Assembly (NCBI GenBank): GCA_046760205.1 | Contig: JBHIDS010000003.1 | Location: forward strand, 1 to 33,695 | Reading direction: 5' to 3' | Source of the DNA: Candidatus Methanofastidiosia archaeon | GTDB lineage: Archaea > Methanobacteriota_B > Thermococci > Methanofastidiosales > SZ-28-30 | DNA: 33,695 nt | Shown here: positions 1-31,919 of the stretch, piece by piece | Layout of the letters: every line of letters starts with the position of its first letter | Numbering within the stretch: the first letter of the stretch is position 1 | The notes under the pieces: model-generated | The model's input: the letters and a program-made list of their open reading frames with translations, nothing else | Databases searched by the model: none | What the model was told of the DNA's origin: nothing | Made by a program: the position numbers and the translations under genes

Positions 1-559
1 CTTCGGCTTCCTCCATAGGTGCAGAGGCTGCAAGGGCTGGGATTTCCATGACGATTTTCCCCCAAATCCCTCCACGCATCTTTATGTGGGTGTAAGCTTT
101 TTCAATGGAATTTATTTTGTACCTCTCATCTCCATCCATAAGCTGGCTTTTCCCCACCAAATTTAGATATCTCTCAAGTTTTGAACAAACATTTTGAAAG
201 CTCTCTTTTGACATTAATCTTGATGCTCTTGAAAGGTGAACTGCAAGCTTTACAAAGAGGATATCTCCAAGTACCATGAAGTTGTTTGCCTTCTGTACAT
301 CAGAAAGCTCATTGAGTGAAGAATCTTTTTTGTCCACAACATCGTCGTGTACAGAGGTGGCGAGAAAGAATGCCTCGCACACCCTCGAAATCTCCTCTGC
401 AAGCTCTTCTTCCCCACCAAATGCTTCGCAGGTAATGAAGGAAAAACATGAAAATATCTTTGCAAGCTCTTTTTCACTCTCGTAGTAATCTAAGAGCTCC
501 AAGAGATTCTCATTCCCATCCTTGAACTCTTCTTTGAGTGAATCGAAAAGACTATTCAT
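1..559 (-). CDS. Polyprenyl synthetase / class I isoprenoid synthase family protein, divergent; 3' part runs off the window
   Basis: Not in the ORF track. Manual translation from ATG 559: MNSLFDSLKEEF...EAFFLATSVHDDVVDKKD...FMVLGDILF...GKSQLMD...; the frame is open to the window edge. It has the first Asp-rich motif DDxxD, the LGD motif and a GQxxD-like motif of trans-prenyltransferases. Confidence 0.75.
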   Translation of the reverse strand, partial: MNSLFDSLKEEFKDGNENLLELLDYYESEKELAKIFSCFSFITCEAFGGEEELAEEISRVCEAFFLATSVHDDVVDKKDSSLNELSDVQKANNFMVLGDILFVKLAVHLSRASRLMSKESFQNVCSKLERYLNLVGKSQLMDGDERYKINSIEKAYTHIKMRGGIWGKIVMEIPALAASAPMEEAE

Positions 560-670
560 ATCAAAGATTTGTATTTTACCTAATAAGTATTTGCTTTTTT
601 GGATTTGAAATTATATGGTTGAAATTTTTGGTGCAAGTGATATTGTATACCCTCAAAAGACAAACCATAA

Positions 671-680
671 ACTTTATATA
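671..680 (+). promoter_or_regulatory. Archaeal TATA box (TTTATATA) for the small ORF at 704
   Basis: ACTTTATATA lies about 30 nt before ATG 704, the spacing of a leaderless transcript. Confidence 0.5.
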
Positions 681-703
681 CAAAAATTTCAACAGGTTTT
701 CAC

Positions 704-868
704 ATGAAGATTTCAGATGAAATAAGGATTTTGATAAGGATGGACAAGAGCATAGAGGAGATAGTGGAATTAGGTTATCCCAGGTATTTGGTATATGAGA
801 TATTTGACAAAGAATTTGCAATACAGATGAATTTAGCCGAAGAAGAGGACTTTCTCACAGACTCCTAG
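704..868 (+). CDS. Small hypothetical protein (54 aa), possibly HTH-like
   Basis: MKISDEIRILIRMDKSIEEIVELGYPRYLVYEIFDKEFAIQMNLAEEEDFLTDS*. It has an upstream TATA box, fills the intergenic gap, and stops 1 nt before the convergent bshA stop. Confidence 0.6.
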   Translation: MKISDEIRILIRMDKSIEEIVELGYPRYLVYEIFDKEFAIQMNLAEEEDFLTDS

Positions 869-869
869 A

Positions 870-1946
870 TCAACCTTTTAAAACCCTCTCATAGTACCTC
901 TCGTACTTTGGGACAATCTTTTCTGGAGTGAAATATCTCAAAACCCTTTTTCTGCCAGCCTCTCCCATCTTTTTTTGTAAATCTTCATCCTCAAGAATCA
1001 TAAGGCACTTTTTGGCAATCTCTTCTATATCCCCCATCTTTACCAAAAAACCACACTCCTTTGTTATAACCTCTAAAAGTCCTCCAGTTTTTGTAGCCAC
1101 AACTGGAATCCCGCAGCTCATCGCCTCCAAGGCTGCAAGTCCAAAGCTCTCCATCTCGGAGGGAAGTAAGAAAAGGGAAGAACTCGACAAAACCTTTGAG
1201 ACATCTCTTAAATTTCCTGTGAACTTTACCATATCTTCAAGACCCAGCTCTTTTGCAAGCCTTTTGGCTTTCAACTTTTCTGGACCATCTCCCACCATTG
1301 TTAACCTGCACTCAATTCTCTTTGTTATCAACTTGAAGGCATGGATTATGTCTGGAATTCTCTTTATTCTTCTAAAGTTGGAGACGTGAACGATGGTCCT
1401 TTCCCTTCTCTCCACAAACCTCCTCTTGAACTTCAAAGGGTCTATGAAGTTGTGAATAACCTCTATATGGTTTTTTATTCCAAACTCTTTTATGGTGAGT
1501 CTTTTTAGATAATTGGAAACAGAGGTTAATCCATCACTCTTTTCCATCGAGAACTTGGTTATACTTTTATACGATGGATCTAGACCAACGAGCTGAACAT
1601 CTGTTCCATGAAGGGTTGTAACGATTTTCACCCTGTTTGTGAGTTTTTTTGCAAGGTATGCAGAGGTGGAATGAGGTATGGCATAGTGAACGTGCAGCAG
1701 TTCGAGTTTTTCCTTCTCACAGACTTCAGCCATCTTTGAGGTTAGAGCCAAGGTATATGGTGGGAACTTGAACAGTGGGTACTTTAGCATATCAACTCTG
1801 TGAAAGTGAACCTTCTCATCCAACCTAAAGGGCAAAGAATAGCTTATGAAGTGTACCTCATGATGTTTGGCAAGCTCTCTTCCAAGCTCAGATGCCACTA
1901 CACCGCTGCCCCCAAAGGTGGGATAACAGGTAATTCCAATCCTCAT
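870..1946 (-). CDS. bshA: N-acetyl-alpha-D-glucosaminyl L-malate synthase BshA (GT4)
   Basis: Signature segments MRIGITCYPTFGGSGVVASELG, FPPYTLAL, LLHVHYAIPH, TTLHGTD, HVSNFR and ESFGLAALEAM. Adjacent to bshB1 and bshC. Confidence 0.93.
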   Translation of the reverse strand: MRIGITCYPTFGGSGVVASELGRELAKHHEVHFISYSLPFRLDEKVHFHRVDMLKYPLFKFPPYTLALTSKMAEVCEKEKLELLHVHYAIPHSTSAYLAKKLTNRVKIVTTLHGTDVQLVGLDPSYKSITKFSMEKSDGLTSVSNYLKRLTIKEFGIKNHIEVIHNFIDPLKFKRRFVERRERTIVHVSNFRRIKRIPDIIHAFKLITKRIECRLTMVGDGPEKLKAKRLAKELGLEDMVKFTGNLRDVSKVLSSSSLFLLPSEMESFGLAALEAMSCGIPVVATKTGGLLEVITKECGFLVKMGDIEEIAKKCLMILEDEDLQKKMGEAGRKRVLRYFTPEKIVPKYERYYERVLKG

Positions 1947-2654
1947 CTAAAACCTCCAAAACTTTAAAGGATCGTCAATCCTTAAAGTATCTCTCACCAA
2001 GAAAGCCTCTCCATACTGAGTGTTTATCATGGCACCATAAAATCTTGCCTTTGCCCTGGTGTGATAGAGATAGTTCTCAGCCCCTATGAATCTGTAGTTT
2101 TTTATCTCTTTTCTATTTAGAAATTGGGTTTTGAAGGCTTTTAAAGCCTCAATCTTTTTCTCAAAGTGGTTGGTGATATCCACTATGAAAGTTGGTCTAA
2201 AGGTGTCATGTACCATGTAGTAGATTAACTGGTTTGGAGAGTGAATATCTAAGTCAAGCTCGATCTTTGAAAGCCTTGCCATAAAGCAAGCCCTCTTACA
2301 GAGTTTGGAGGCTCTTGCATGATCTGGATGTCTGTCGTTCCAATAAGGTGCAAAAACTAAGGAAGGTCTTAACTTTCTAATCCTTTCTGCAAGCAAAACT
2401 CCATTCTCAAAGCTGTTTTCAATTTTACAGTCTCCAAGATTCAAATTCTCCCTCAAATCCAGCCCCAGAACCTCTGAAGATCTCTCAGCCTCTTTAAGTC
2501 TCTTTTTGAAATTTCCCCTCGAACCTAACTCACCTTTAGTTAAGTCTATTATCCCTGTCTTGTATCCTCTGGCTTTGAGCTTTGCCAAAGTCCCACCTAC
2601 TCCAAGCTCTGAATCATCTGGGTGGGCTCCCACAACTAAAACATCTATCTTCAT
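1947..2654 (-). CDS. bshB1: Bacillithiol biosynthesis deacetylase BshB1 (PIG-L/LmbE family)
   Basis: Metal motifs AHPDDxE and DRHPDH, plus DLTKGELGSRG and YGEAF. Lies between bshC and bshA. Confidence 0.9.
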   Translation of the reverse strand: MKIDVLVVGAHPDDSELGVGGTLAKLKARGYKTGIIDLTKGELGSRGNFKKRLKEAERSSEVLGLDLRENLNLGDCKIENSFENGVLLAERIRKLRPSLVFAPYWNDRHPDHARASKLCKRACFMARLSKIELDLDIHSPNQLIYYMVHDTFRPTFIVDITNHFEKKIEALKAFKTQFLNRKEIKNYRFIGAENYLYHTRAKARFYGAMINTQYGEAFLVRDTLRIDDPLKFWRF

Positions 2655-4213
2655 GTATACACCAAAATGTGGTCTCCAGCCTCTGCTTTCTCAAATTCCT
2701 TTTTCAAAAGGTCTATAAAAGTGTTTCCAAATTTAGTGAGATAATAAAATACATTCAGCCTTCTTTCCTGAAGCCTTGATAAGGGAAAGAGGTTGTTGTG
2801 AGCCTTTTCAATCTGAGATCTTAGGATTTCATTTTTCATCTTTACAGAACTTAAAAATTTTGACTTCAAGGAGAACAACTCATTTTCAATTCTCTTACGT
2901 GATGCAAGGGTTGCTCTTTTCAAATTTGGATCTATGGATTCTGCATAATTTGAAATTTCATCGAATTCTTTAAGAATTCCTTTAGAGAAGTCATCGAAAT
3001 TTCCTACTTCTTTCCTTAAAAGTCTTGAAATTGGGCTTTCAAACTCCCTCAACTCAAAAACTTCAAGATTGTACTTTAAAAGAATCTTTTTAATCTTTCT
3101 CTCGACGATGGTGGCACCAAATCTAGGATAGATTGCAGGCATCTCCACTCCAAAGAATTCATAGACTTTCCTCAATTGGGCAAAATATGAGATCTCGGAA
3201 GAGCCCGCCACATAAGATAGGGTGGGAAGGAGATAGTCCTGAAAAACTGGTCTTGTAACAACGTTGGTGCTGAAAGAATCTATTTCAGAGTGTAAAAGCT
3301 CTTCAAACTCCTCTCTTTTGTAAACTCTTTCAGAAACCCTGAACTTGCTCCCATCGAACTCAACCCTCTCTCTTCTCCCATCCTGTATCAAAAAGAGGTT
3401 GCAGCTCCCCAAAACCTTGTGGAGCTTAGGTTTGTACCCTCTTTCTCTTAGCTTTTCAGAGGAGGCTTTAACAAGCTTTGAGATTTTTGTTGGATTTTCA
3501 ATGAGCCTCTCACAGAATTTGGGCATGAACTTTCTCAAAGGGTGAGGTTCTATCAAAATCAAACCATAATTTGAGAACAACCTACTCATGATTCTTGAGA
3601 AGTACTCCCCAAGATTTGTAGATTTTTCAGCCTCTTTTTTAAGCATAAGGATAAAAAAATCCTTGAACTCACTCTCAGATGTGGTTTCATCCATATTTTC
3701 AATCAATTCAAAAACGTTTACCTCACCTGTTTTTATGTCAGAAATACTTTTTTTTTCTATCTTGCCTTTAAGTTCAAGCTTTTCAGGACGGTTGTCTTTT
3801 AGAATATAAGTAGATGCAATCTCCTCAAAGTCATGATCCTCTGAGGCATTCCAGAATAGGGGCACGCACTTTATATTCCTTTTCTTCAACCTCTCACAAA
3901 GTATGATGGCTGTGAGAGCCTTGTAGATGGTAAATAGTGATCCTGTAAAGATTCCTGCTTGCTGTCCAGAAACAACAACATAGGTATCCTCACTTAAAAG
4001 GGTTTCTAGATTCTCAAAGACCTTGTCTCCAGCTTCGATTCTCTTATTGTACTCCCTTAAAACCTTCAAAAGGCTTTCCCTATCTATTTCTCTATTAGAA
4101 ATTTCAATTTTTCTGTAGTCTTTGGCATAGAAGTCTTTCAACTTCTCAAAGTTCAAAATATAATCGTAAGCTATCGTTCCTTTCTTCAAGATCTTGTTCA
4201 TATCTAATTGCAT
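2651..4213 (-). CDS. bshC: Bacillithiol biosynthesis cysteine-adding enzyme BshC
   Basis: GQQAGIFTGxLFTIYKAL, WNASEDHDFEEI, SxNVVTRPVFQDYLLP, YVAGSSEISYF and LQER are BshC/YllA motifs. 520 aa; ATGA overlap with bshB1. Confidence 0.92.
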   Translation of the reverse strand: MQLDMNKILKKGTIAYDYILNFEKLKDFYAKDYRKIEISNREIDRESLLKVLREYNKRIEAGDKVFENLETLLSEDTYVVVSGQQAGIFTGSLFTIYKALTAIILCERLKKRNIKCVPLFWNASEDHDFEEIASTYILKDNRPEKLELKGKIEKKSISDIKTGEVNVFELIENMDETTSESEFKDFFILMLKKEAEKSTNLGEYFSRIMSRLFSNYGLILIEPHPLRKFMPKFCERLIENPTKISKLVKASSEKLRERGYKPKLHKVLGSCNLFLIQDGRRERVEFDGSKFRVSERVYKREEFEELLHSEIDSFSTNVVTRPVFQDYLLPTLSYVAGSSEISYFAQLRKVYEFFGVEMPAIYPRFGATIVERKIKKILLKYNLEVFELREFESPISRLLRKEVGNFDDFSKGILKEFDEISNYAESIDPNLKRATLASRKRIENELFSLKSKFLSSVKMKNEILRSQIEKAHNNLFPLSRLQERRLNVFYYLTKFGNTFIDLLKKEFEKAEAGDHILVYT

Positions 4214-4235
4214 TGAAAACCCTTTAAATTCTCTT

Positions 4236-4243
4236 TATTTAAA
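4236..4243 (-). promoter_or_regulatory. TATA box of the bsh operon
   Basis: TTTAAATA on the minus strand, about 30 nt upstream of the bshC ATG. Confidence 0.5.
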
Positions 4244-4276
4244 CTCTGCTTTACAGGGTTAAATAAAGGCTTTGAG

Positions 4277-4747
4277 TTAGAGAGTTTTCTGGACTTTCTG
4301 ATAATATTCAAGTAGCTCTTCCAAGCTCTTCCAGAGCTCTTCCCTCTCTGACTTCAAACTCTCCAAAGACCCAAAGACCCTCAAAACATCCTCAAAGATT
4401 TTTTTGTTCTTTCTCAAAACCTTCTCTCTCTCCTCCATGATAGAGATGATATCTAGGGTTTCTCCCAGAACCATCCCAAGCTGTATTATCAAAAATATCT
4501 TGTAATCCAAATCATCGCTATCTGCCAACTCATCTATGTAGTGTTTCTCTGAGAAAAGGTTGTCAATTAGCTGTAGGAGATGGGAGTTGAGCCTGCCCAA
4601 AACCTCTATGGCTGTTTTCAAATCCTCCATGAGAAGGTTGATAGAATCTAAACCTTCTGAGAATTCTCGATCATAAAAACTCTCAAAAAAAGTTTTCATT
4701 CCTCGCCGATGAAGCATTTTTATCTTCTTGAGGTCAAGGTCTTTCAT
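4277..4747 (-). CDS. Hypothetical helical/coiled-coil protein (156 aa)
   Basis: The ORF track gives 4277..4879. ATG 4747 (MKDLDLKK...) has a TATA-like CTTATAAG about 25 nt upstream and avoids overlap with the Zn-finger ORF. Confidence 0.6.
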   Translation of the reverse strand: MKDLDLKKIKMLHRRGMKTFFESFYDREFSEGLDSINLLMEDLKTAIEVLGRLNSHLLQLIDNLFSEKHYIDELADSDDLDYKIFLIIQLGMVLGETLDIISIMEEREKVLRKNKKIFEDVLRVFGSLESLKSEREELWKSLEELLEYYQKVQKTL

Positions 4748-4829
4748 TAAGATGAATAGTATTCTAAACTTATAAGGTTTTCTCATCTTTTTGGCTTGGG
4801 ACTTTTTCCACAATTGTAATCTCTTGCTC

Positions 4830-4976
4830 TCAGAGAAAATCTCTCGGAATCTCTTTAAGGGATGTGGGGAAGTACCCACAGTCTGGGCACTCCAAAAGAT
4901 GGGGTTGAGAGAATAAGATATCCTCTTGCAACCTCCAACTTACAGAACCACAGAATGCACACTGGTACATTTTCAT
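4830..4976 (-). CDS. Small CPxCG-type zinc-finger protein (48 aa)
   Basis: MKMYQCAFCGSVSWRLQEDILFSQPHLLECPDCGYFPTSLKEIPRDFL*. It has CxxCG and CPxCG, an SD-like GGTAGGTGG before the ATG, and TTATATATAA at about 5014-5023. Confidence 0.75.
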   Translation of the reverse strand: MKMYQCAFCGSVSWRLQEDILFSQPHLLECPDCGYFPTSLKEIPRDFL

Positions 4977-5077
4977 CCACCTACCAAGGAATTATTACTA
5001 TGAAAATAGTAAGTTATATATAAGGTTTTCGGTTTCCTAGATGAAAAGAAATAAATACCAAAGCGTCAAGGAGCTTT

Positions 5078-6001
5078 ATGATAGAAAATAAGAAAGTGTT
5101 GGTAACAGGTGGTGCAGGATTTATAGGTTCCCACTTAGTGGATTCTCTTTCTGAGAAAAACGAGGTTGTGGTTGTTGACAATCTCTCCTCTGGAAGAAGA
5201 GAATTCTTGAATGATAGAGCCAACTTTATTGAAAAAGACCTCTCAAACTTAGAGGATGTAAAGGCTCACTTCTCAGATGTGGATTTTGTCTTTCACTTAG
5301 CTGCAAACCCAGATGTGAGGGAAGGACTTCTAAATCCTGAGGTTCTTTTGAAACAAAACATAATCTTGACCTTCAATGTCCTGGAAGCCATGAGAGAGAA
5401 TTCGATTAAAAGAATGGTATTCACCTCCTCATCCACAGTTTATGGAGAGGCTCAGATGCCAACATCAGAAGAACATCCATGCCTTCCAATCTCCCTCTAT
5501 GGAGCTTCAAAGCTTTCCTGTGAGGCGCTGATCTCCTCATACTGCCACTCCTTTGAGATGCAATCTCATATTTTAAGACTTGCAAACATAGTGGGAGAGA
5601 GAAGCACCCATGGAGTGATTTTAGACTTTATAGAAAAGCTTAGGAAAAAACCAGAAGAGCTTGAGATTTTAGGAAATGGAAGCCAAAAGAAATCCTATCT
5701 TCACATCTCAGATTGCATAGATGCAACCTTCTTTTCTCTTGAAAAGAGCAAAGGTAAAGTAAATATCTTCAACATAGGTTCAAAGGACACTATAACTGTT
5801 GAAAGGATTGGAAAGATCGTTTCAGAAGAGATGAATTTGAATCCAAAGTTCAAATTCACTGGAGGAAAGAGGGGATGGAGAGGGGATGTCCCCAAGATGC
5901 TCTTGAACCTTGAGAAAATAGAGAAATTGGGATGGAATCCAAGGTACTCTTCAGAAGAGAGTGTGAGAGAGGCTGTGAGAGGTTGTCTTGGAAAGGTTTA
6001 A
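5078..6001 (+). CDS. NAD-dependent epimerase/dehydratase (UDP-glucose 4-epimerase-like)
   Basis: TGGAGFIGSH Rossmann motif, SSSTVYG and catalytic YGASK. Confidence 0.9.
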   Translation: MIENKKVLVTGGAGFIGSHLVDSLSEKNEVVVVDNLSSGRREFLNDRANFIEKDLSNLEDVKAHFSDVDFVFHLAANPDVREGLLNPEVLLKQNIILTFNVLEAMRENSIKRMVFTSSSTVYGEAQMPTSEEHPCLPISLYGASKLSCEALISSYCHSFEMQSHILRLANIVGERSTHGVILDFIEKLRKKPEELEILGNGSQKKSYLHISDCIDATFFSLEKSKGKVNIFNIGSKDTITVERIGKIVSEEMNLNPKFKFTGGKRGWRGDVPKMLLNLEKIEKLGWNPRYSSEESVREAVRGCLGKV

Positions 6002-6024
6002 AAACTCATACATAGACACAAATC

Positions 6025-8289
6025 ATGAAAAGGATTCTTGGGGTTCTGTTTCTACTTTTCTTGATTTCCTCAATTTCCAGAACCTCCCCTCAAGACTATG
6101 ATTTTTATCTGGTTTGGGAGAAGGATTTTTGGTCCGTCTTAGGACACTCGACTCACTTTGTTGATATTGATGGCGGTTTATTAGAAATCTTTGTTATTGG
6201 GAAAACATCAAAAGAAGAAGATCCTGGATTTTTTGTTTTAAATGCTTTTGGGGAAAAGATCTTTAGAAGAGAAATGTTTTTTAATTTAAAATTCTTCTTC
6301 ACTGACTTGGAGAATGATGGATTTAAAGAAATTTTCTATTTTAGAAGAATCCCTTTGAATGAAAAGCGAGAAGAGCGCCTTGAAAGAATAGAGGTTTTGA
6401 ATCATGAGGGTATTCTACTTTGGTCATATGACTATATGAAAACTTCTGAGTTACTTTATTCATTACCAGATTTCATATTTCATGATATCAACGATGATGG
6501 TTTGAAGGAGATTTTCGTAGGCAATCTCATTTTTGATGCTGAGGGAAATGTGATACAAACTTTCGATGAATTCTTCAATTGTGTTGGCGTTGGAGATTTC
6601 AACGATGATGGCGAGATTGAGGTCTTGCTTTTGAAGGAATTTTATCCTAAAGAAACTCTTATAAGGGAACAAACTTTTGAAATATCTGATTTGGAAGGTG
6701 AAGTTCTTTGGGAATATCAAGTGGTACAAGAACACAATTTTGAAGGTAGAGTTTGGACACAGCTCTTAGATTTGGATGGAGATGGAAAGAAAGAATTGAT
6801 ATTTTTCGAAAATGGTCTTATTTATCGATTGAATCCAAATAACTTCTCTGAAAAAATAGTTATACTTAAGCTAAAAGAGGAGGTCGCACCTGGTTGGGTT
6901 TATCCTTTTTTAGAGATCAAAGATATAGGTGGAGATGGAAATCAAGAGTATTTGGTTTTGACACAAGATTGGTACAAACACGAACAAAAATTTTATGTTT
7001 TTGATGAGAATAAGAGATTTCTTTGGGAGTATGAAAATATGAATTGGGATATGATTGAAGAAAGAGATCTGGAAAACGATGGAAAGTTAGAGTTCTTTTT
7101 TTCAAATTCCAAAGATTTCGATGTGGATTTAGGTGTTTTTGATGTTCTTAATTATGATGGAAAAAGAAGATGGGGTTTGATATTTAATAATCATGTAGAG
7201 TTTGAAGTTTGGGATGTGAATCTCGATGGAGAAAAGGAAATCATTGCTTATGATTCCTTAGCTAGGAAAGAGTCTTTTATCAACATTTTCAACCCGCAAG
7301 GCGAGTTGATCAAGAGGTTTGAGATTGAACAATACTCCACGATTTTCTTTCATGATTTTGATAATGATAAAGATTTGGATTTTTTGGTTCTAACCTATAC
7401 AGAAGATTTTTCAAAAGGAAAGCTCTCCCTTTACTCAAACTCCTTAAATAATGGACCTTTGGATGAGATTTCAAATAGAGCCGTAAAGCTTCAAGGAGCA
7501 GATTTAGAAAAGGCAGGGTTTGAGGATTTTGACAGAATAAAATATGAATGGAGAAGGCTTTCTCGTATTTTGAAAAAATCTTATACTCAAAGAAATCCAT
7601 TTTATCTAATTATAAAATACAGAACTCAAGCAAAGTTCTTTTTTGGATTCTTCACTATCCTCTTCATGACCTTATCCCTGTATCTAACCAGGTTCTTCAA
7701 AAAGAAAGAATCAAAATGGGAGATTTTATGGAGTTTTAAAAAAGTAATTCTGTACTTTATCGCTTTGATGTTATTATCTCTTCTCGCTCTCATCTACTTT
7801 CTCTACAAGATCTTAAAATCATCTGAGGATTACAAGAAGGCTCTTGGATTTGTTAAAATCACAAAAAGACAGATTTTCATCACTATTGTCATAGGTTTGA
7901 TTCTCTTCTTTGCAAGCTCAAGTTTGACTGTTCTTTTTGCTCTCAGTGACATAAAACTTCCAGACATTTCAAGAGCTGAATATCTTATTAAAAACTACCT
8001 TCTCTTCGCAATCCTTCTAATGGTGATAACTGAATCCATAGGAGAAGAAATAATATTCTCAAGTTATCTCTACCCAATCCTTAGAAACAAGTTAGGAGTA
8101 AAGCTTGGAATCTTCTCAATTGCCTCGTTATTCTCAGTGATGCACCTTGAGCCAGTTTTCATTTCAATATTCTTCATTGAATCTTTGATAAAAACCTACA
8201 TCTACGAAAAGACCCACTGCATATACGTTCCAATGATAATTCATTTCATACATAACTCCATAGTTGTAGCTCTGATTTACTTCACCTGA
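6025..8289 (+). CDS. Membrane protein with extracellular FG-GAP/VCBS-like repeats fused to a C-terminal CPBP (Abi/CAAX) intramembrane protease domain
   Basis: N-terminal signal peptide; repeated Dx[DN]xDGxxE loops (DLENDGFKE, DINDDGLKE, DFNDDGEIE, DLDGDGKKE, DVNLDGEKE, DFDNDKDLD); TM region with GEEIIFS, FSVMH and HFIHN. Confidence 0.75.
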   Translation: MKRILGVLFLLFLISSISRTSPQDYDFYLVWEKDFWSVLGHSTHFVDIDGGLLEIFVIGKTSKEEDPGFFVLNAFGEKIFRREMFFNLKFFFTDLENDGFKEIFYFRRIPLNEKREERLERIEVLNHEGILLWSYDYMKTSELLYSLPDFIFHDINDDGLKEIFVGNLIFDAEGNVIQTFDEFFNCVGVGDFNDDGEIEVLLLKEFYPKETLIREQTFEISDLEGEVLWEYQVVQEHNFEGRVWTQLLDLDGDGKKELIFFENGLIYRLNPNNFSEKIVILKLKEEVAPGWVYPFLEIKDIGGDGNQEYLVLTQDWYKHEQKFYVFDENKRFLWEYENMNWDMIEERDLENDGKLEFFFSNSKDFDVDLGVFDVLNYDGKRRWGLIFNNHVEFEVWDVNLDGEKEIIAYDSLARKESFINIFNPQGELIKRFEIEQYSTIFFHDFDNDKDLDFLVLTYTEDFSKGKLSLYSNSLNNGPLDEISNRAVKLQGADLEKAGFEDFDRIKYEWRRLSRILKKSYTQRNPFYLIIKYRTQAKFFFGFFTILFMTLSLYLTRFFKKKESKWEILWSFKKVILYFIALMLLSLLALIYFLYKILKSSEDYKKALGFVKITKRQIFITIVIGLILFFASSSLTVLFALSDIKLPDISRAEYLIKNYLLFAILLMVITESIGEEIIFSSYLYPILRNKLGVKLGIFSIASLFSVMHLEPVFISIFFIESLIKTYIYEKTHCIYVPMIIHFIHNSIVVALIYFT

Positions 8290-8326
8290 TTGGTTTAAAT
8301 CTCTTCAAAATTCTCACGGTACTAAC

Positions 8327-8340
8327 CGAAATGTTTATAT
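8327..8340 (+). promoter_or_regulatory. BRE-TATA promoter of the aglJ-like gene
   Basis: CGAAATGTTTATAT; the same 14-mer recurs at 10240-10253. Confidence 0.6.
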
Positions 8341-8384
8341 ATTAATAGTTAACAATACTAATTAATAGTGAAGAAGGAGGTTGT

Positions 8385-9293
8385 ATGAAGATTTCAGTGA
8401 TAATTCCAACCTTAAATGAGGAAAAAACCATAGAGGAAGTAATTGAGGGTTTTAAAAAACAGAAGGTTTCAGAGATAATAGTGGTAGATGGAAACTCTCA
8501 GGATGAAACGAGAAGGATTGCAAGAAGGCTTGGTGCTGAGGTTTTCATACAGCCTGAAAAGGGGAAGGGAGAGGCTGTGCTTTATGGTTTTGAGAAAGCC
8601 TCTGGAGATGTTTTAGTTCTCATAGATGGAGATGCCACCTATCTTCCAGAAGAGCTTCCAAAGCTTTTAAAACCTCTCGATGAAGGGTGTGAGCATGTAA
8701 TTGGAAAAAGGAAATTCTCAAGTGGCGCCATCACTAAGTTCAACATGCTGGGAAACAAAATTTTGAACAAGATGTTTGGAATGTTCTATGGAGAGTTCTT
8801 CTCTGACATCTTGACAGGTTACAGAGTGATAACAAAAGATGCCTTTGAGAGATTGGATTTGGCATCCATGGGATTTGGAATAGAACCAGAGCTCCTCATC
8901 GAGAGCATAAGAAAGAGAGTTAAGATTTGTGAGGTGGAGATTTCCTACCTTAGGCGGCCCAAGGGAAGCAAGACCAAACTTCACCCTCTGAGAGATGGTC
9001 TAAAGATTGGATTAACTATCTACAGATTGACGAGGCTGCACAACCCACTCTTTTTCTTTGGGATAATTGGAGCTGTTTTTTTGATCATTGGATTTTTCTT
9101 CGGAACCATCATTCTACAGGAATACTTCAGAACTGGATTTGTGACGAGAATTCCATTGACCATTCTATCCATATTGCTTCTCCTTGGTGGTTTGAATTTC
9201 TTGCTTATTGCAGTTATTGCAGATTTGATAATAATGCTTCATAAAGACACCATGAACCTGATACAGAGGCTCGAATTTTCAAACAAGAAATGA
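8385..9293 (+). CDS. aglJ: GT2 dolichol-phosphate glycosyltransferase, AglJ-like
   Basis: IIPTLNEE, VVDGNSQDET, GKGEAV, the DxD motif DGDATY, FGIEPE and KLHPLRDG, plus two C-terminal TM helices. SD GGAGG. Confidence 0.75.
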   Translation: MKISVIIPTLNEEKTIEEVIEGFKKQKVSEIIVVDGNSQDETRRIARRLGAEVFIQPEKGKGEAVLYGFEKASGDVLVLIDGDATYLPEELPKLLKPLDEGCEHVIGKRKFSSGAITKFNMLGNKILNKMFGMFYGEFFSDILTGYRVITKDAFERLDLASMGFGIEPELLIESIRKRVKICEVEISYLRRPKGSKTKLHPLRDGLKIGLTIYRLTRLHNPLFFFGIIGAVFLIIGFFFGTIILQEYFRTGFVTRIPLTILSILLLLGGLNFLLIAVIADLIIMLHKDTMNLIQRLEFSNKK

Positions 9294-9309
9294 TTTAAGA
9301 GGCATTTAG

Positions 9310-10236
9310 GTGAAAAAAATAGGAATAACTGGAGCTGGTGGGTATGTTGGAGCCATGCTTTGCCAAAAATTGAAAGAGGACTATGAGTTGGTTTTGATCG
9401 ATGACTTAAGTAACTCTCAGATAACTGAAATTAACGATATAAAAATAAAAAAACAAGATGTTTATGATTTTGATGGTTTAAAAGAGTTGTTGGATGTTGA
9501 TTTGGTTGTTCATTTGGCAGCCCTCTCAGGGGTCTTAGAGTGTGATGAAAATCCAACTCTTGCATACAAGACCAACGTAATAGGGACGCTGAATATCTGT
9601 GAGGTCTGCAGAGAGAGGAAAATCCCCCTGATATTCTCTTCTTCTGTTGGCGTCATTGGAGATCCAAAACAGCTTCCAATAAAAGAGGACCATCCCCTAA
9701 ATCCCTTAAACCTGTATGGCTTCACAAAAAAAATTGCACAAGAAAACATAATCTCATACTCTAAGGATTTTCCAGCCTACATTCTCATCAAAACCAACAT
9801 CTATGGAAGCTACTCTGTTGATGGCAAAAAGATCAGTAAAAACTCTGTCATAAACATCTTTTTAGACAATGCAAAAGAGAGAAAACCCTTGATGATAAAC
9901 AAACCTGGCACGCAGGCGAGAGACTTTATCTATATTTCAGATGTGATAGAGGCATATCTTTTGGCAATTAAAAAAATCGAAAAAGAAAAAAACGGGACAA
10001 AGCTTTTCTGCATAGGGAGTGGAAAATCCACATCCATAGTTGATGTAGCAGAGATGATAAAGGGCGTTGCATTGGAAAAGGCTTTTGAAGTCCAAGTTCA
10101 GATGAGAGAAAACCCAAGAAAGAGAGAGACTCTCATAGAGGAGTTTTACGTTGATATCAGTAAGGCAAAAGAATACCTAAATTTTAAACCTCAGCATAGA
10201 TTGGAGAGAGATTTGAGAGAGATGTTTGCTGATTGA
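9310..10236 (+). CDS. NAD-dependent epimerase/dehydratase
   Basis: TGAGGYVG, HLAA, YGFTK and RDFIYISD. Confidence 0.88.
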   Translation: MKKIGITGAGGYVGAMLCQKLKEDYELVLIDDLSNSQITEINDIKIKKQDVYDFDGLKELLDVDLVVHLAALSGVLECDENPTLAYKTNVIGTLNICEVCRERKIPLIFSSSVGVIGDPKQLPIKEDHPLNPLNLYGFTKKIAQENIISYSKDFPAYILIKTNIYGSYSVDGKKISKNSVINIFLDNAKERKPLMINKPGTQARDFIYISDVIEAYLLAIKKIEKEKNGTKLFCIGSGKSTSIVDVAEMIKGVALEKAFEVQVQMRENPRKRETLIEEFYVDISKAKEYLNFKPQHRLERDLREMFAD

Positions 10237-10239
10237 AAT

Positions 10240-10253
10240 CGAAATGTTTATAT
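10240..10253 (+). promoter_or_regulatory. BRE-TATA promoter
   Basis: CGAAATGTTTATAT, identical to 8327-8340, upstream of the GT4 gene. Confidence 0.6.
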
Positions 10254-10290
10254 GGTTTCTCGAGATTGAAGGGGTGTTTGAGATTGAGGT

Positions 10291-11445
10291 ATGAGGGGGG
10301 GTGATGTGAAAATAACTTTGATTGGACCCTCAAAACTTTTCATAAGTGGAATAAGCATCTATACCATAAGATTAGCCAATGCACTCTCGAAAAAAAACCA
10401 AATTTCAGTTGTGTGTCTGAGAAAACTGTTGCCAAGAATACTGTTTCCAGGAAAAAAGAGAATTGGAGAGAATATTTCAAACTTTGAGTTTTCTAAGGGA
10501 ATAAGAATCTTTGATGGAGTTAACTACGCCTCTCCTCTAAGCTGGATAGGTGCTTTGAGATTCATTGAAAGGATAAACCCCGATGTTGTCATCTTTCAAT
10601 GGTGGTCATCCTCAGTTCTCCATACATATATATTAATAAGATTTTTTTTGAAAGTAAAAACCAAAATCGTTGTTGAGATGCATGAAGTTATAGATCCTGT
10701 AGAGAGTAGAACCTTTATAGTTAGATTGTATTCTAAGATCTTTGGAAGATTCTTTCTAAAAAACCTTGATGGATACATAACTCACTCAGAACACGACAAA
10801 AAGCTGGTTTCTGAAACATACGATATAGACGAAAAAAGGATAAAAGTAATACCTCATGGTTTGTACGACCAATACAAAAAGATAGATCGAAAAATTGCAA
10901 AGAGTTCATTAAACATTGAGGAAGAGTTTGTAATTTTGTACTTTGGTTTGATCAGAAGGTACAAAGGTGTTTTTCATTTAATCGATGCCTTCGAGATTCT
11001 GCCTAAGGAGATTCTAGAAAAATCTCGGTTAGTCCTTGTGGGAGAAATCTGGGATGAAGAAAAGAAGCTAAAAAAAAGGATAGATTCATCAAACCTGAGA
11101 GACAGAATAACCTTAGTGGATAGGTATGTTTACGATAGAGAACTCGAGAACTTTTTCTCCTGTGCAGATGTCGTTGTCCTTCCATACTTAAGAGCATCTC
11201 AGAGTGGCGTTGCTCACATAGCGATGGCTTATGGAAAGCCTGTAGTTGTTTCCAAGGTGGGTGGACTTGGAGAGGCATTGGAAATTTATGAAGGAACCTT
11301 TTTTGTAAACCCAGAAGTTCCAGTGGATATCGCAGAAAAGATTACAAAGGTCTATAAAACCTCAAAAAGTTATGAGTCTCCCCAAGAGTACAGATGGGAA
11401 AAGGTATCTAGAAAGTACCTTGAGTTTTTGGAGGATGATTTTTGA
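10291..11445 (+). CDS. Glycosyltransferase family 4
   Basis: FGLIRRYKG and VVLPYLRASQSGVAHIAMAYGKPVV. The start could be GTG 10306. Confidence 0.88.
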   Translation: MRGGDVKITLIGPSKLFISGISIYTIRLANALSKKNQISVVCLRKLLPRILFPGKKRIGENISNFEFSKGIRIFDGVNYASPLSWIGALRFIERINPDVVIFQWWSSSVLHTYILIRFFLKVKTKIVVEMHEVIDPVESRTFIVRLYSKIFGRFFLKNLDGYITHSEHDKKLVSETYDIDEKRIKVIPHGLYDQYKKIDRKIAKSSLNIEEEFVILYFGLIRRYKGVFHLIDAFEILPKEILEKSRLVLVGEIWDEEKKLKKRIDSSNLRDRITLVDRYVYDRELENFFSCADVVVLPYLRASQSGVAHIAMAYGKPVVVSKVGGLGEALEIYEGTFFVNPEVPVDIAEKITKVYKTSKSYESPQEYRWEKVSRKYLEFLEDDF

Positions 11446-12534
11446 ATGCACTTAAATACTCTCAAGTATATCAACCATTTCATATCCTCAAAGATTGCAA
11501 GATTTACCTATAAAACTCAAGGTCCTCTATTTCTGAATATGGCACTAACCTATAGGTGTAATTCCAAATGTCAAATGTGCAACATCTGGAAAACCTACAA
11601 AAAAAATTCACAAAAAGCTACTCAGGAATTGAGGATTCAAGATTACGAAAGATTTTTCAATGATAACAAGAAATATCTTAAAGACCTCTTGCAGATTGCA
11701 ATCACAGGAGGAGAACCTTTTCTTCGAGAAGATCTTGTAGAGTTGGTGAAAATCATACACAAATTGTATCCAAGAGCTTTCATAGACCTCTCCACCAACG
11801 GATTCTTATCAAAAAGGATTACAAGCACAGTTGAGAAGTTCTTTAAAGAGAACCCAATTTTGAGGCTTCAAGTGAGTGTCTCTTTAGATGGAATTGGTGA
11901 AGTTCATGATGAGATAAGAGGAGTAAAAGGAGCCTTTGAAAAGGTAAGAACAACTTGTGAACTTTTGAGAGAACTTAAGGATAGATTCTCAAATCTTGAA
12001 ATCACCCTAAGCTTTACAATTCTTGAATCAAACTATAAAGAGATTTCAAAGGTTTACCAGTTCGCAGAGAGGTATGGAGTAAGATTTACACTCAGACCAG
12101 CTCAAGTGAGTGAAATATACTATCTCAACCCAAACCTAAAGGTATCTTTTCCGAATGATATGATTCAATTCGTTGAGATGAAGGCAAAAGAGATCTCTTT
12201 AGGATATAGAAGTTTTTTCATTCGACACATAAAAAACTATCTGAGAAATCCTAAAAAACAAATAGTTCCATGCTACTCCCTCTTCTACTCAATGTTTACC
12301 GATCCTTTTGGAGATGTTTATCCTTGCACCTTCATCAACTCTTCTGTTGGAAACATAAAAGATGCAGAGTTTTTTGAGAGAATCTGGAATTCCAACAAAA
12401 TAAAATCGATGAGAAAGGAGATAAAGAACAATAGATGTCCAAATTGCTGGACAGAATGTGAGAGCAACAAGTCCATATACCTCGATGGAACATCTCTTCT
12501 TTTTTGGTATATTTTTGAAAGACACCTTAGATAA
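11446..12534 (+). CDS. Radical SAM protein with SPASM/twitch domain
   Basis: CNSKCQMC (CxxxCxxC), TGGEPFLR, VSLDG, and C-terminal PC...GDVYPC...CPNCWTEC. Confidence 0.9.
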   Translation: MHLNTLKYINHFISSKIARFTYKTQGPLFLNMALTYRCNSKCQMCNIWKTYKKNSQKATQELRIQDYERFFNDNKKYLKDLLQIAITGGEPFLREDLVELVKIIHKLYPRAFIDLSTNGFLSKRITSTVEKFFKENPILRLQVSVSLDGIGEVHDEIRGVKGAFEKVRTTCELLRELKDRFSNLEITLSFTILESNYKEISKVYQFAERYGVRFTLRPAQVSEIYYLNPNLKVSFPNDMIQFVEMKAKEISLGYRSFFIRHIKNYLRNPKKQIVPCYSLFYSMFTDPFGDVYPCTFINSSVGNIKDAEFFERIWNSNKIKSMRKEIKNNRCPNCWTECESNKSIYLDGTSLLFWYIFERHLR

Positions 12535-31640: not shown

Positions 31641-31797
31641 GCCTCGGTGGCTTAGCGGTAGAGCGACCGCCTCGTAAGAACCCCTTTTCTTTCTTAAAAG
31701 AAAGAAAAGCTGTTCATGGGAAAAGAAAGAATTTTTCTCTTTCAAAAAAAGGTTCAGAGAGAGCGGTAGGTCGGGGGTTCGAATCCCCCCCGAGGCT
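31641..31797 (+). tRNA. tRNA-Thr(CGT) with an 85-nt intron at position 37/38 (31677-31761)
   Basis: Acceptor stem GCCTCGG/CCGAGGC, anticodon stem ACCGC/GCGGT, loop CT-CGT-A|A, T arm GGGGG-TTCGAAT-CCCCC. BHB motif with bulges TAA and AGA and outer helix GAACC/GGTTC. Confidence 0.92.
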
Positions 31798-31799
31798 TT

Positions 31800-31873
31800 G
31801 GGGTCGTAGGGTAGCTTGGTGATCCTTGTGCCTTCGGGAGGCATAGACTCGAGTTCGAATCTCGGCGACCCCA
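31800..31873 (+). tRNA. tRNA-Pro(CGG)
   Basis: Acceptor stem GGGGTCG/CGACCCC, anticodon arm GTGCC-TTCGGGA-GGCAT, T loop TTCGAAT; CCA is not encoded. Confidence 0.95.
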
Positions 31874-31919
31874 TAAAATATTTAGATAAACCTTATAAAC
31901 CTTCAAAGGAATCCAAAAT

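Follow-up and report, generated by a model that had tools for sequence, protein, structure and literature searches.

The stretch of DNA analysed here (33,695 nucleotides, hereafter the window) is the whole of contig JBHIDS010000003.1 in GenBank assembly GCA_046760205.1, from a so far uncultured archaeon that lives in marine sediment or vents and belongs to a Theionarchaea-type family (GTDB class Thermococci); at positions 870-4213 the window carries three back-to-back minus-strand open reading frames (ORFs) that are the canonical bacillithiol (BSH) genes bshC, bshB1 and bshA. We consider it likely, on sequence grounds, that this operon is functional and that its host makes bacillithiol; the product itself, its expression, its physiological role and its recycling route we infer.

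The identity of each protein was judged by whether its score on an NCBIfam equivalog model exceeds the curated cut-off, and all three do: BshC with 436 bits over a cut-off of 265.8 (TIGR03998), BshB1 with 252.7 over 182.5 (TIGR04001) and BshA with 483.3 over 273.7 (TIGR03999). A preliminary description of the window had called a complete operon with intact motifs and proposed this check, and the ORFs are as it described them, including their coupling, with a 4-nt overlap between bshC and bshB1 (2651-2654) and a gap of 0 nt between the bshB1 stop and the bshA start. Structurally, BshC combines PF10079 (320 bits) and PF24850 (84 bits), that is, the Rossmann-like plus coiled-coil build of the family, and its sole match in the Protein Data Bank (PDB) is BshC of Bacillus subtilis (4wbd, 198 bits). 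BshB1, a PIG-L protein by Pfam, reaches just 45.5 bits on the BshB2 model, and its residues H11, D14 and H112 fall in the alignment at the positions of zinc ligands H12, D15 and H113 in BC1534 (2ixd; ligands named in PMC5790435), so the His-Asp-His zinc site is kept. BshA is built of GT4 domains, with the runner-up GT4 family at 124.9 bits, and aligns end to end, N-terminal acceptor domain included, with BshA of Bacillus anthracis (2jjm/3mbo, 350 bits) and of B. subtilis (5d00, 338 bits). No BshB2 over its cut-off was found in the window genome (43.7 bits versus 195).

Biochemically, BshA would couple the N-acetylglucosamine (GlcNAc) of uridine diphosphate (UDP)-GlcNAc to L-malate, its predicted acceptor, the zinc enzyme BshB1 would then deacetylate, and BshC would attach cysteine to give Cys-GlcN-malate, or bacillithiol, and the three genes would thus encode the whole known bacillithiol route. 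This chain is drawn from the family assignments together with the pathway established in Bacillus, as set out in PMC5790435. Physiologically, the thiol would probably act as a low-molecular-weight cofactor or protectant, perhaps for the DinB-superfamily proteins of this genome, and its disulfide would need a reductant other than Bdr, for example one of the genome's two thioredoxin reductase systems.

The genome to which the window belongs spans 2.25 Mb in 285 contigs and is estimated at 91.9% completeness and 0.41% contamination. Since no 16S rRNA gene was found in it, the host assignment rests on kinship groups and on tests for transcription factor B (TFB) and sigma-70: genome-wide, TFIIB repeats are present and Sigma70_r2 is absent, and in the controls TFIIB was found in 4/4 archaea and 0/10 bacteria, with Sigma70_r2 reversed. 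The operon is truly linked to its archaeal neighbours, because independent single contigs span it and its flanks: in three runs of a second study, window positions 1-12000 lie intact in contigs of 24.7, 17.9 and 25.6 kb that differ at 35-36 bases and show neither indels nor joints, which refutes the chimeric assembly that the preliminary description had named as a risk. Archaeal-type neighbours in the window include an AglJ equivalog (339 bits versus 325), an STT3-like gene and an NreA-like gene.

Within its phylum, the operon is confined to one family. BshC over the cut-off was found in 4/4 genomes of the family, which fall in two genera, and in 0/30 from the rest of the order, 0/7 sampled from the class and 0/129 other genomes of the phylum set, that is, 4/133 overall. 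The C-B1-A gene order is kept in all three family-mates, there beside TFB, aIF-2B-family and Sir2 genes (contigs of 19.5-124 kb), and the three bsh ORFs are intact in 4/4 family genomes. Measured against 824 long ORFs of the window genome, the operon has GC content and third-position GC within ±1 standard deviation and codon-usage index percentiles of 77, 82 and 42, in line with the host-like codon style reported earlier. The ratio of nonsynonymous to synonymous substitution rates (dN/dS), from a comparison of two family-mates with dS of about 1, is 0.12 for BshC, 0.10 for BshB1 and 0.06 for BshA, and the eight strain differences listed in the operon comprise five synonymous changes and no stops. 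Because of this one-family distribution, host-like composition and purifying selection, the observations fit an old, assimilated horizontal acquisition, as the preliminary description had put forward, and one that has been kept under selection.

Relatives were gathered from one genome per species, with 204 BshC relatives among 221 pattern hits, of which the best 80 were retained. Among these 80, 31 loci are archaeal (18 Bathyarchaeia, 8 Heimdall-labelled, 2 Promethearchaeati and 3 Theionarchaea/Thermococci); 26 of the 31 have the order C-B1-A, and the remaining five are interrupted by contig ends. C-B1-A is likewise the arrangement of Latescibacterota/Gemmatimonadota, Abyssobacteria-type and Actinomycetota loci; those of Aerophobetes type read C-A-B1 or C-B1, and Paenibacillus and Acidobacteriota have bshC alone. 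Where tested, in Theionarchaea, Bathyarchaeia, Heimdall and Aerophobetes loci, both BshB1 and BshA were over their cut-offs. In the BshC tree (81 rows from a quick search whose sample is biased towards the query's motifs; root not known), one clade, with Shimodaira-Hasegawa-like approximate likelihood-ratio support of 95, unites all 32 archaeal rows with 9 Aerophobetes-type rows and excludes the remaining 40 bacterial ones, and within it the Aerophobetes group is sister to Bathyarchaeia (support 99). As the genes flanking the closest bacterial loci are diagnostic of neither domain, their domain was tested genome-wide, and the Aerophobetes-type bins are genuinely bacterial, with six sigma-70 matches each and no TFB. 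At the closest such locus (L019:511-10535), the cassette has sulfur and cysteine genes for neighbours: NifS, MoeB/ThiF-like and FdhD genes lie upstream, and NadA and the cysteine synthase CysK downstream. In one Bathyarchaeia chromosome (L029:7195-7602), the BshA ORF that follows bshC-bshB1 has only 135 aa though the locus continues, and it may be disrupted. Among archaea, canonical BshC is rare even in the groups that have it, with 2/251 sampled Bathyarchaeia genomes and 7/251 sampled genomes of the Asgard phylum. We posit that the cassette would have reached the family's ancestor by horizontal transfer, after which it would have acquired host composition and been retained by selection. It would belong to a pool of C-B1-A cassettes that anaerobic lineages of sediments and vents have in common (Bathyarchaeia, Asgard archaea, Aerophobetes-type bacteria and others). 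More broadly, the joint archaeal and Aerophobetes clade shows that, in anoxic sediments, pathways for thiol cofactors are passed between domains.

Several observations weigh against this picture, in its history as well as in its physiology. The window BshC shares 35-39% identity with those of its family-mates versus 44% with an Aerophobetes-type copy; a concatenated three-protein tree (37 rows, 1140 columns) places the window beside Bathyarchaeia and Aerophobetes (support 81); neither this tree nor the BshC tree recovers the window and its family-mates as one clade; and the genes flanking the operon differ between the family's two genera. Because the window fails to group with its family-mates and the flanks differ, a single ancestral acquisition is not established; an approximately unbiased test does not reject the clade (log-likelihood difference 3.05, p = 0.395), and the trees are possibly compatible with either one or two acquisitions in the family. 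On the physiological side, no Bdr/YpdA over the cut-off was found in the 91.9%-complete genome (TIGR04018 best scores 63.4 and 58.4 bits versus 339.9), and the two best matches are ordinary thioredoxin reductases, being TrxR equivalogs with a CAIC motif. The bacilliredoxins BrxA/B (YphP/YqiW) and BrxC (YtxJ) likewise gave no match at E ≤ 0.001 to TIGR04191 or TIGR04019 in this genome, no BstA/YfiT equivalog was found among the four DinB_2 proteins scanned (best 45.5 bits versus 160), and no RNA run was found among those listed as holding window positions 500-5500. Finally, according to a 2018 review (PMC5790435), the BshC reaction had not been reconstituted in vitro, and the last step of the pathway therefore rests on Bacillus genetics.

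The preliminary description had proposed a BSH-based redox buffer and named bdr/ypdA and brx as genes to look for; since neither was found in the 92%-complete genome, a role for the thiol as the main redox buffer is a putative one. Nor was Bdr over its cut-off found in any of four further carriers that were checked (Bathyarchaeia, Heimdall and two Aerophobetes-type). The DinB superfamily includes bacillithiol and mycothiol transferases, and six DinB_2 (PF12867) proteins in the window genome are over the Pfam cut-off (contigs C131, C31, C37, C2, C57 and C110). DinB_2 over the cut-off is present in 4/4 family genomes (2-3 per family-mate), in 0/37 relatives and in 0/4 archaeal controls. A role for DinB_2 as a BSH user that travels with the operon was considered; striking as it is, the contrast is that of a single lineage, and Asgard genomes show no enrichment (5/7 with true BshC versus 131/244 without). 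In one DinB_2 protein (L097:45-821), a YfiT-like domain (45.5 bits) is fused with a rubrerythrin-like zinc motif.

Three other explanations of the operon were weighed. The one with most to recommend it, and still an unlikely one in our estimation, is that the product is a relative of BSH, for example N-methylated as in Chlorobi or a non-malate glycoside, such as would suit the anaerobic cytoplasm of an archaeon. In its favour, the host lineage lives anaerobically in sediments or vents, as do the other carriers, N-methyl-bacillithiol is the form known from an anaerobe (PMC12719100), the usual partners Bdr and Brx were not found, and the branch leading to the window proteins is long (0.72 for BshC). 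BshA, however, exceeds its equivalog cut-off by 210 bits and matches the B. anthracis enzyme through the acceptor domain, BshB1 and BshC are over their own cut-offs as well, and ORF, NCBIfam and Pfam scans showed no methyltransferase in or beside the operon. For reference, the NmbA methyltransferase of the N-methyl-bacillithiol pathway has been deposited as PDB 9RI2 (same source).

Bacillithiol proper is also to be set against the idea that the operon does little, being a silent or decaying leftover of transfer, which we regard as very improbable. That no RNA run appeared among those covering the locus, that no dedicated BSH-using enzymes were recognised in the genome, and that the short BshA ORF of the Bathyarchaeia chromosome L029 hints at cassettes decaying all speak for such a leftover; against it, the three ORFs are intact in all four family genomes, dN/dS stays at 0.06-0.12, strain variants bring neither stops nor frameshifts, and translational coupling is retained. 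Most remote of all is bacterial DNA misjoined or misbinned into an archaeal genome, an explanation that is effectively refuted. The fragmentation of the genome, its missing 16S rRNA gene and the fact that the top BshC identity (44%) is to a bacterial metagenome-assembled genome would suit it, but in independent assemblies from another study the operon shares its contig with 8 kb of glycosylation genes, the AglJ, STT3-like and NreA-like genes stand within the window itself, the operon adjoins TFB in the three family-mates, and both its genome-like composition and the low contamination estimate argue the same way. Production of bacillithiol by a functional, long-resident operon is thus the reading that we retain.

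Archaeal bsh genes as such are already in print, and what is presented here is a canonical cassette in a lineage from which none had been described. A 2020 review, 'Redox and Thiols in Archaea' (PMC7278568), puts the archaeal InterPro hits at 39 for BshA and 39 for BshC, most of them in Asgard archaea, with only two YpdA homologues and no record of BSH having been detected; it gives gamma-Glu-Cys in haloarchaea and coenzyme A in hyperthermophiles as the archaeal thiols measured so far. These counts, together with the complete cassettes in Bathyarchaeia and Heimdall-type genomes, mean that the preliminary description overstated the rarity of the pathway in archaea. Comparative genomics suggests a wide occurrence of BSH derivatives across Bacteria and Archaea (PMC8113031), and a 2025 survey, which searched RefSeq only, found no archaeal pathway (PMC12719100); the word 'archaea' is absent from PMC6282198 and PMC6336425, and PMC8261052 and PMC9426492 do not bear on the question. 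Our literature search on BSH genes in Theionarchaea or Bathyarchaeota returned nothing beyond the 2020 review and papers citing it.

From a wider perspective, a canonical, long-resident and selected bsh operon in a relative of Thermococci offers a clean test case for archaeal BSH, with proteins close enough to characterised enzymes for heterologous expression to decide whether archaeal BSH exists. The lack of Bdr in the carriers checked and of Brx in the window genome points to an undescribed recycling route. We therefore advance, tentatively and with somewhat less than even confidence, a broader proposal: that genuine BSH is made by strict anaerobes of at least three archaeal phyla, with the Theionarchaea-type family the first to be recognised as making it apart from Asgard archaea and Bathyarchaeia; that the cassette has been traded across domains with Aerophobetes-type bacteria in sediments; and that it works without Bdr or bacilliredoxins, disulfide recycling and conjugate formation being handled by an undescribed system, perhaps thioredoxin reductase/thioredoxin and DinB-fold proteins.

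The coordinates of the operon and its upstream region are collected in the table below.

Table 1 Genes of the putative bacillithiol operon and the adjoining 5' region, in window coordinates.
Feature	Position	Strand	Description
bshC, putative cysteine-adding enzyme of bacillithiol synthesis	2651..4213	-	520 aa; TIGR03998, PF10079 + PF24850, 4wbd
bshB1, GlcNAc-malate deacetylase	1947..2654	-	235 aa; TIGR04001, Zn ligands as 2ixd
bshA, GT4 UDP-GlcNAc:L-malate glycosyltransferase	870..1946	-	358 aa; TIGR03999, 2jjm/3mbo full-length
intergenic region 5' of bshC	4214..4276	-	63 nt; contains TATA-like TTTAAATA

Upstream of the operon, the preliminary description had noted an archaeal TATA box. A TATA-like TTTAAATA is indeed present at 4236-4243(-), 22 nt upstream of the bshC ATG, where it fits but does not prove a possible archaeal promoter giving a short-leader or leaderless transcript; such motifs number 8 in the window versus 6.2 expected, and because this count is no higher than chance the box is not evidence for a promoter. 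A search for bacterial-type signals gave 8 sigma-70-like sites versus 9.4 expected and 1 terminator-like site versus 4.4 expected, neither of them informative. Around the operon, only short, low-identity repeats were found in place of mobile-element scars, and none of the eight ORFs scanned in 1-8289 matched integrase or transposase families in Pfam or NCBIfam.

The ORF directly upstream of bshC, at 4277-4879(-), has 156-200 aa and an uncertain start (shorter form 4277-4747), and its shorter form has no Pfam or NCBIfam match. Its 5' part is overlapped, in a different frame, by an ORF of 46 aa at 4833-4970(-) that has two CxxC pairs and is thus zinc-ribbon-like. In the sister genus, a gene of 149-182 aa lies directly upstream of bshC and overlaps the bshC start (L014:4731-5180(+), with the same position in L013 and L015); its protein matches weakly the TrmB C-terminal sensing domain (PF11495, 25.6 bits) and PLD-like domains, and it may regulate the operon there. 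A conserved fourth operon gene was rejected, as the window's upstream ORF is unrelated to those of the family-mates (BLASTP E = 33; the 25-27% identity is alignment noise).

Farther out, a large protein-glycosylation island adjoins the operon (window 5078-28091) and holds two nicotinamide adenine dinucleotide (NAD)-dependent sugar epimerases, the AglJ equivalog, at least five GT4 glycosyltransferases, a radical SAM/SPASM protein and two methyltransferases, as well as the STT3-like protein, of 1059 aa, and another protein, of 754 aa, that combines FG-GAP with CPBP protease domains. Two adjacent tRNA genes follow at 31641-31797(+) and 31799-31874(+), of which ARAGORN called the second alone, as tRNA-Pro(CGG); the first is 157 nt long and matches the full 71-position tRNA model, which implies that about 85 nt are inserted in it as an archaeal-type intron.

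Compared with other archaeal systems, the window operon stands apart from a divergent type that is the common archaeal form, rather than the canonical one. A divergent BshC-family protein (540-620 aa; TIGR03998 30-110 bits versus 265.8) occurs in 131/251 sampled Asgard-phylum genomes and 50/251 sampled Bathyarchaeia; its gene adjoins a BshA-type GT4 gene in 5/5 loci examined (L102-L106), both of the BshA copies that were scanned clear the TIGR03999 cut-off (346 and 390 bits), and at one Bathyarchaeia locus there are also a weak BshB-like gene (76.5 bits versus 182.5) and a weak DinB-type match. These divergent clusters may make an undescribed BSH-like thiol, and they probably account for a large part of the 2020 review's counts. 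In contrast, the window BshC, at 436 bits, is canonical, and the window genome, with a single match, is without the divergent type. Closer are the cassettes found in Bathyarchaeia, Heimdall-type Asgard archaea and Aerophobetes-type bacteria, which share its BshC clade, have the order C-B1-A in 26 of the 31 archaeal loci and lack Bdr over the cut-off in the four checked; the window copy differs in lying in another phylum, that of Thermococci, of which this family alone has it, in its BshC identity of 35-44% and, as regards the Aerophobetes-type cassettes, in its order C-B1-A instead of C-A-B1 or C-B1.

Among bacterial thiol pathways, the mycothiol route of Actinobacteria (MshA/MshB/MshC) is alike in using a GT4 glycosyltransferase, an LmbE-type deacetylase and a cysteine addition, but the window proteins reach only 65.8 bits for MshA and 34.5 for MshB, far under the cut-offs of 462.5 and 224.4, and the cysteine adder here is BshC, not the MshC that resembles cysteinyl-tRNA synthetase. 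The pathway of Firmicutes differs from the window system in its host, here an archaeon in whose genome no BshB2, Bdr, BrxA/B or BrxC was found, and in gene order, with a bshA-bshB1 operon and bshC elsewhere in Bacillus (PMC5790435, in agreement with the preliminary description) versus a single tight C-B1-A operon here; B. subtilis BshC is also only distantly similar to the window protein (198 bits). Even so, the pathway of B. subtilis, B. anthracis and Staphylococcus aureus is built from the same three equivalog-level families, with BshA alike over its full length (338-350 bits to 2jjm/3mbo/5d00), the BshB1 zinc triad conserved and BshC of the same two-domain build as 4wbd.

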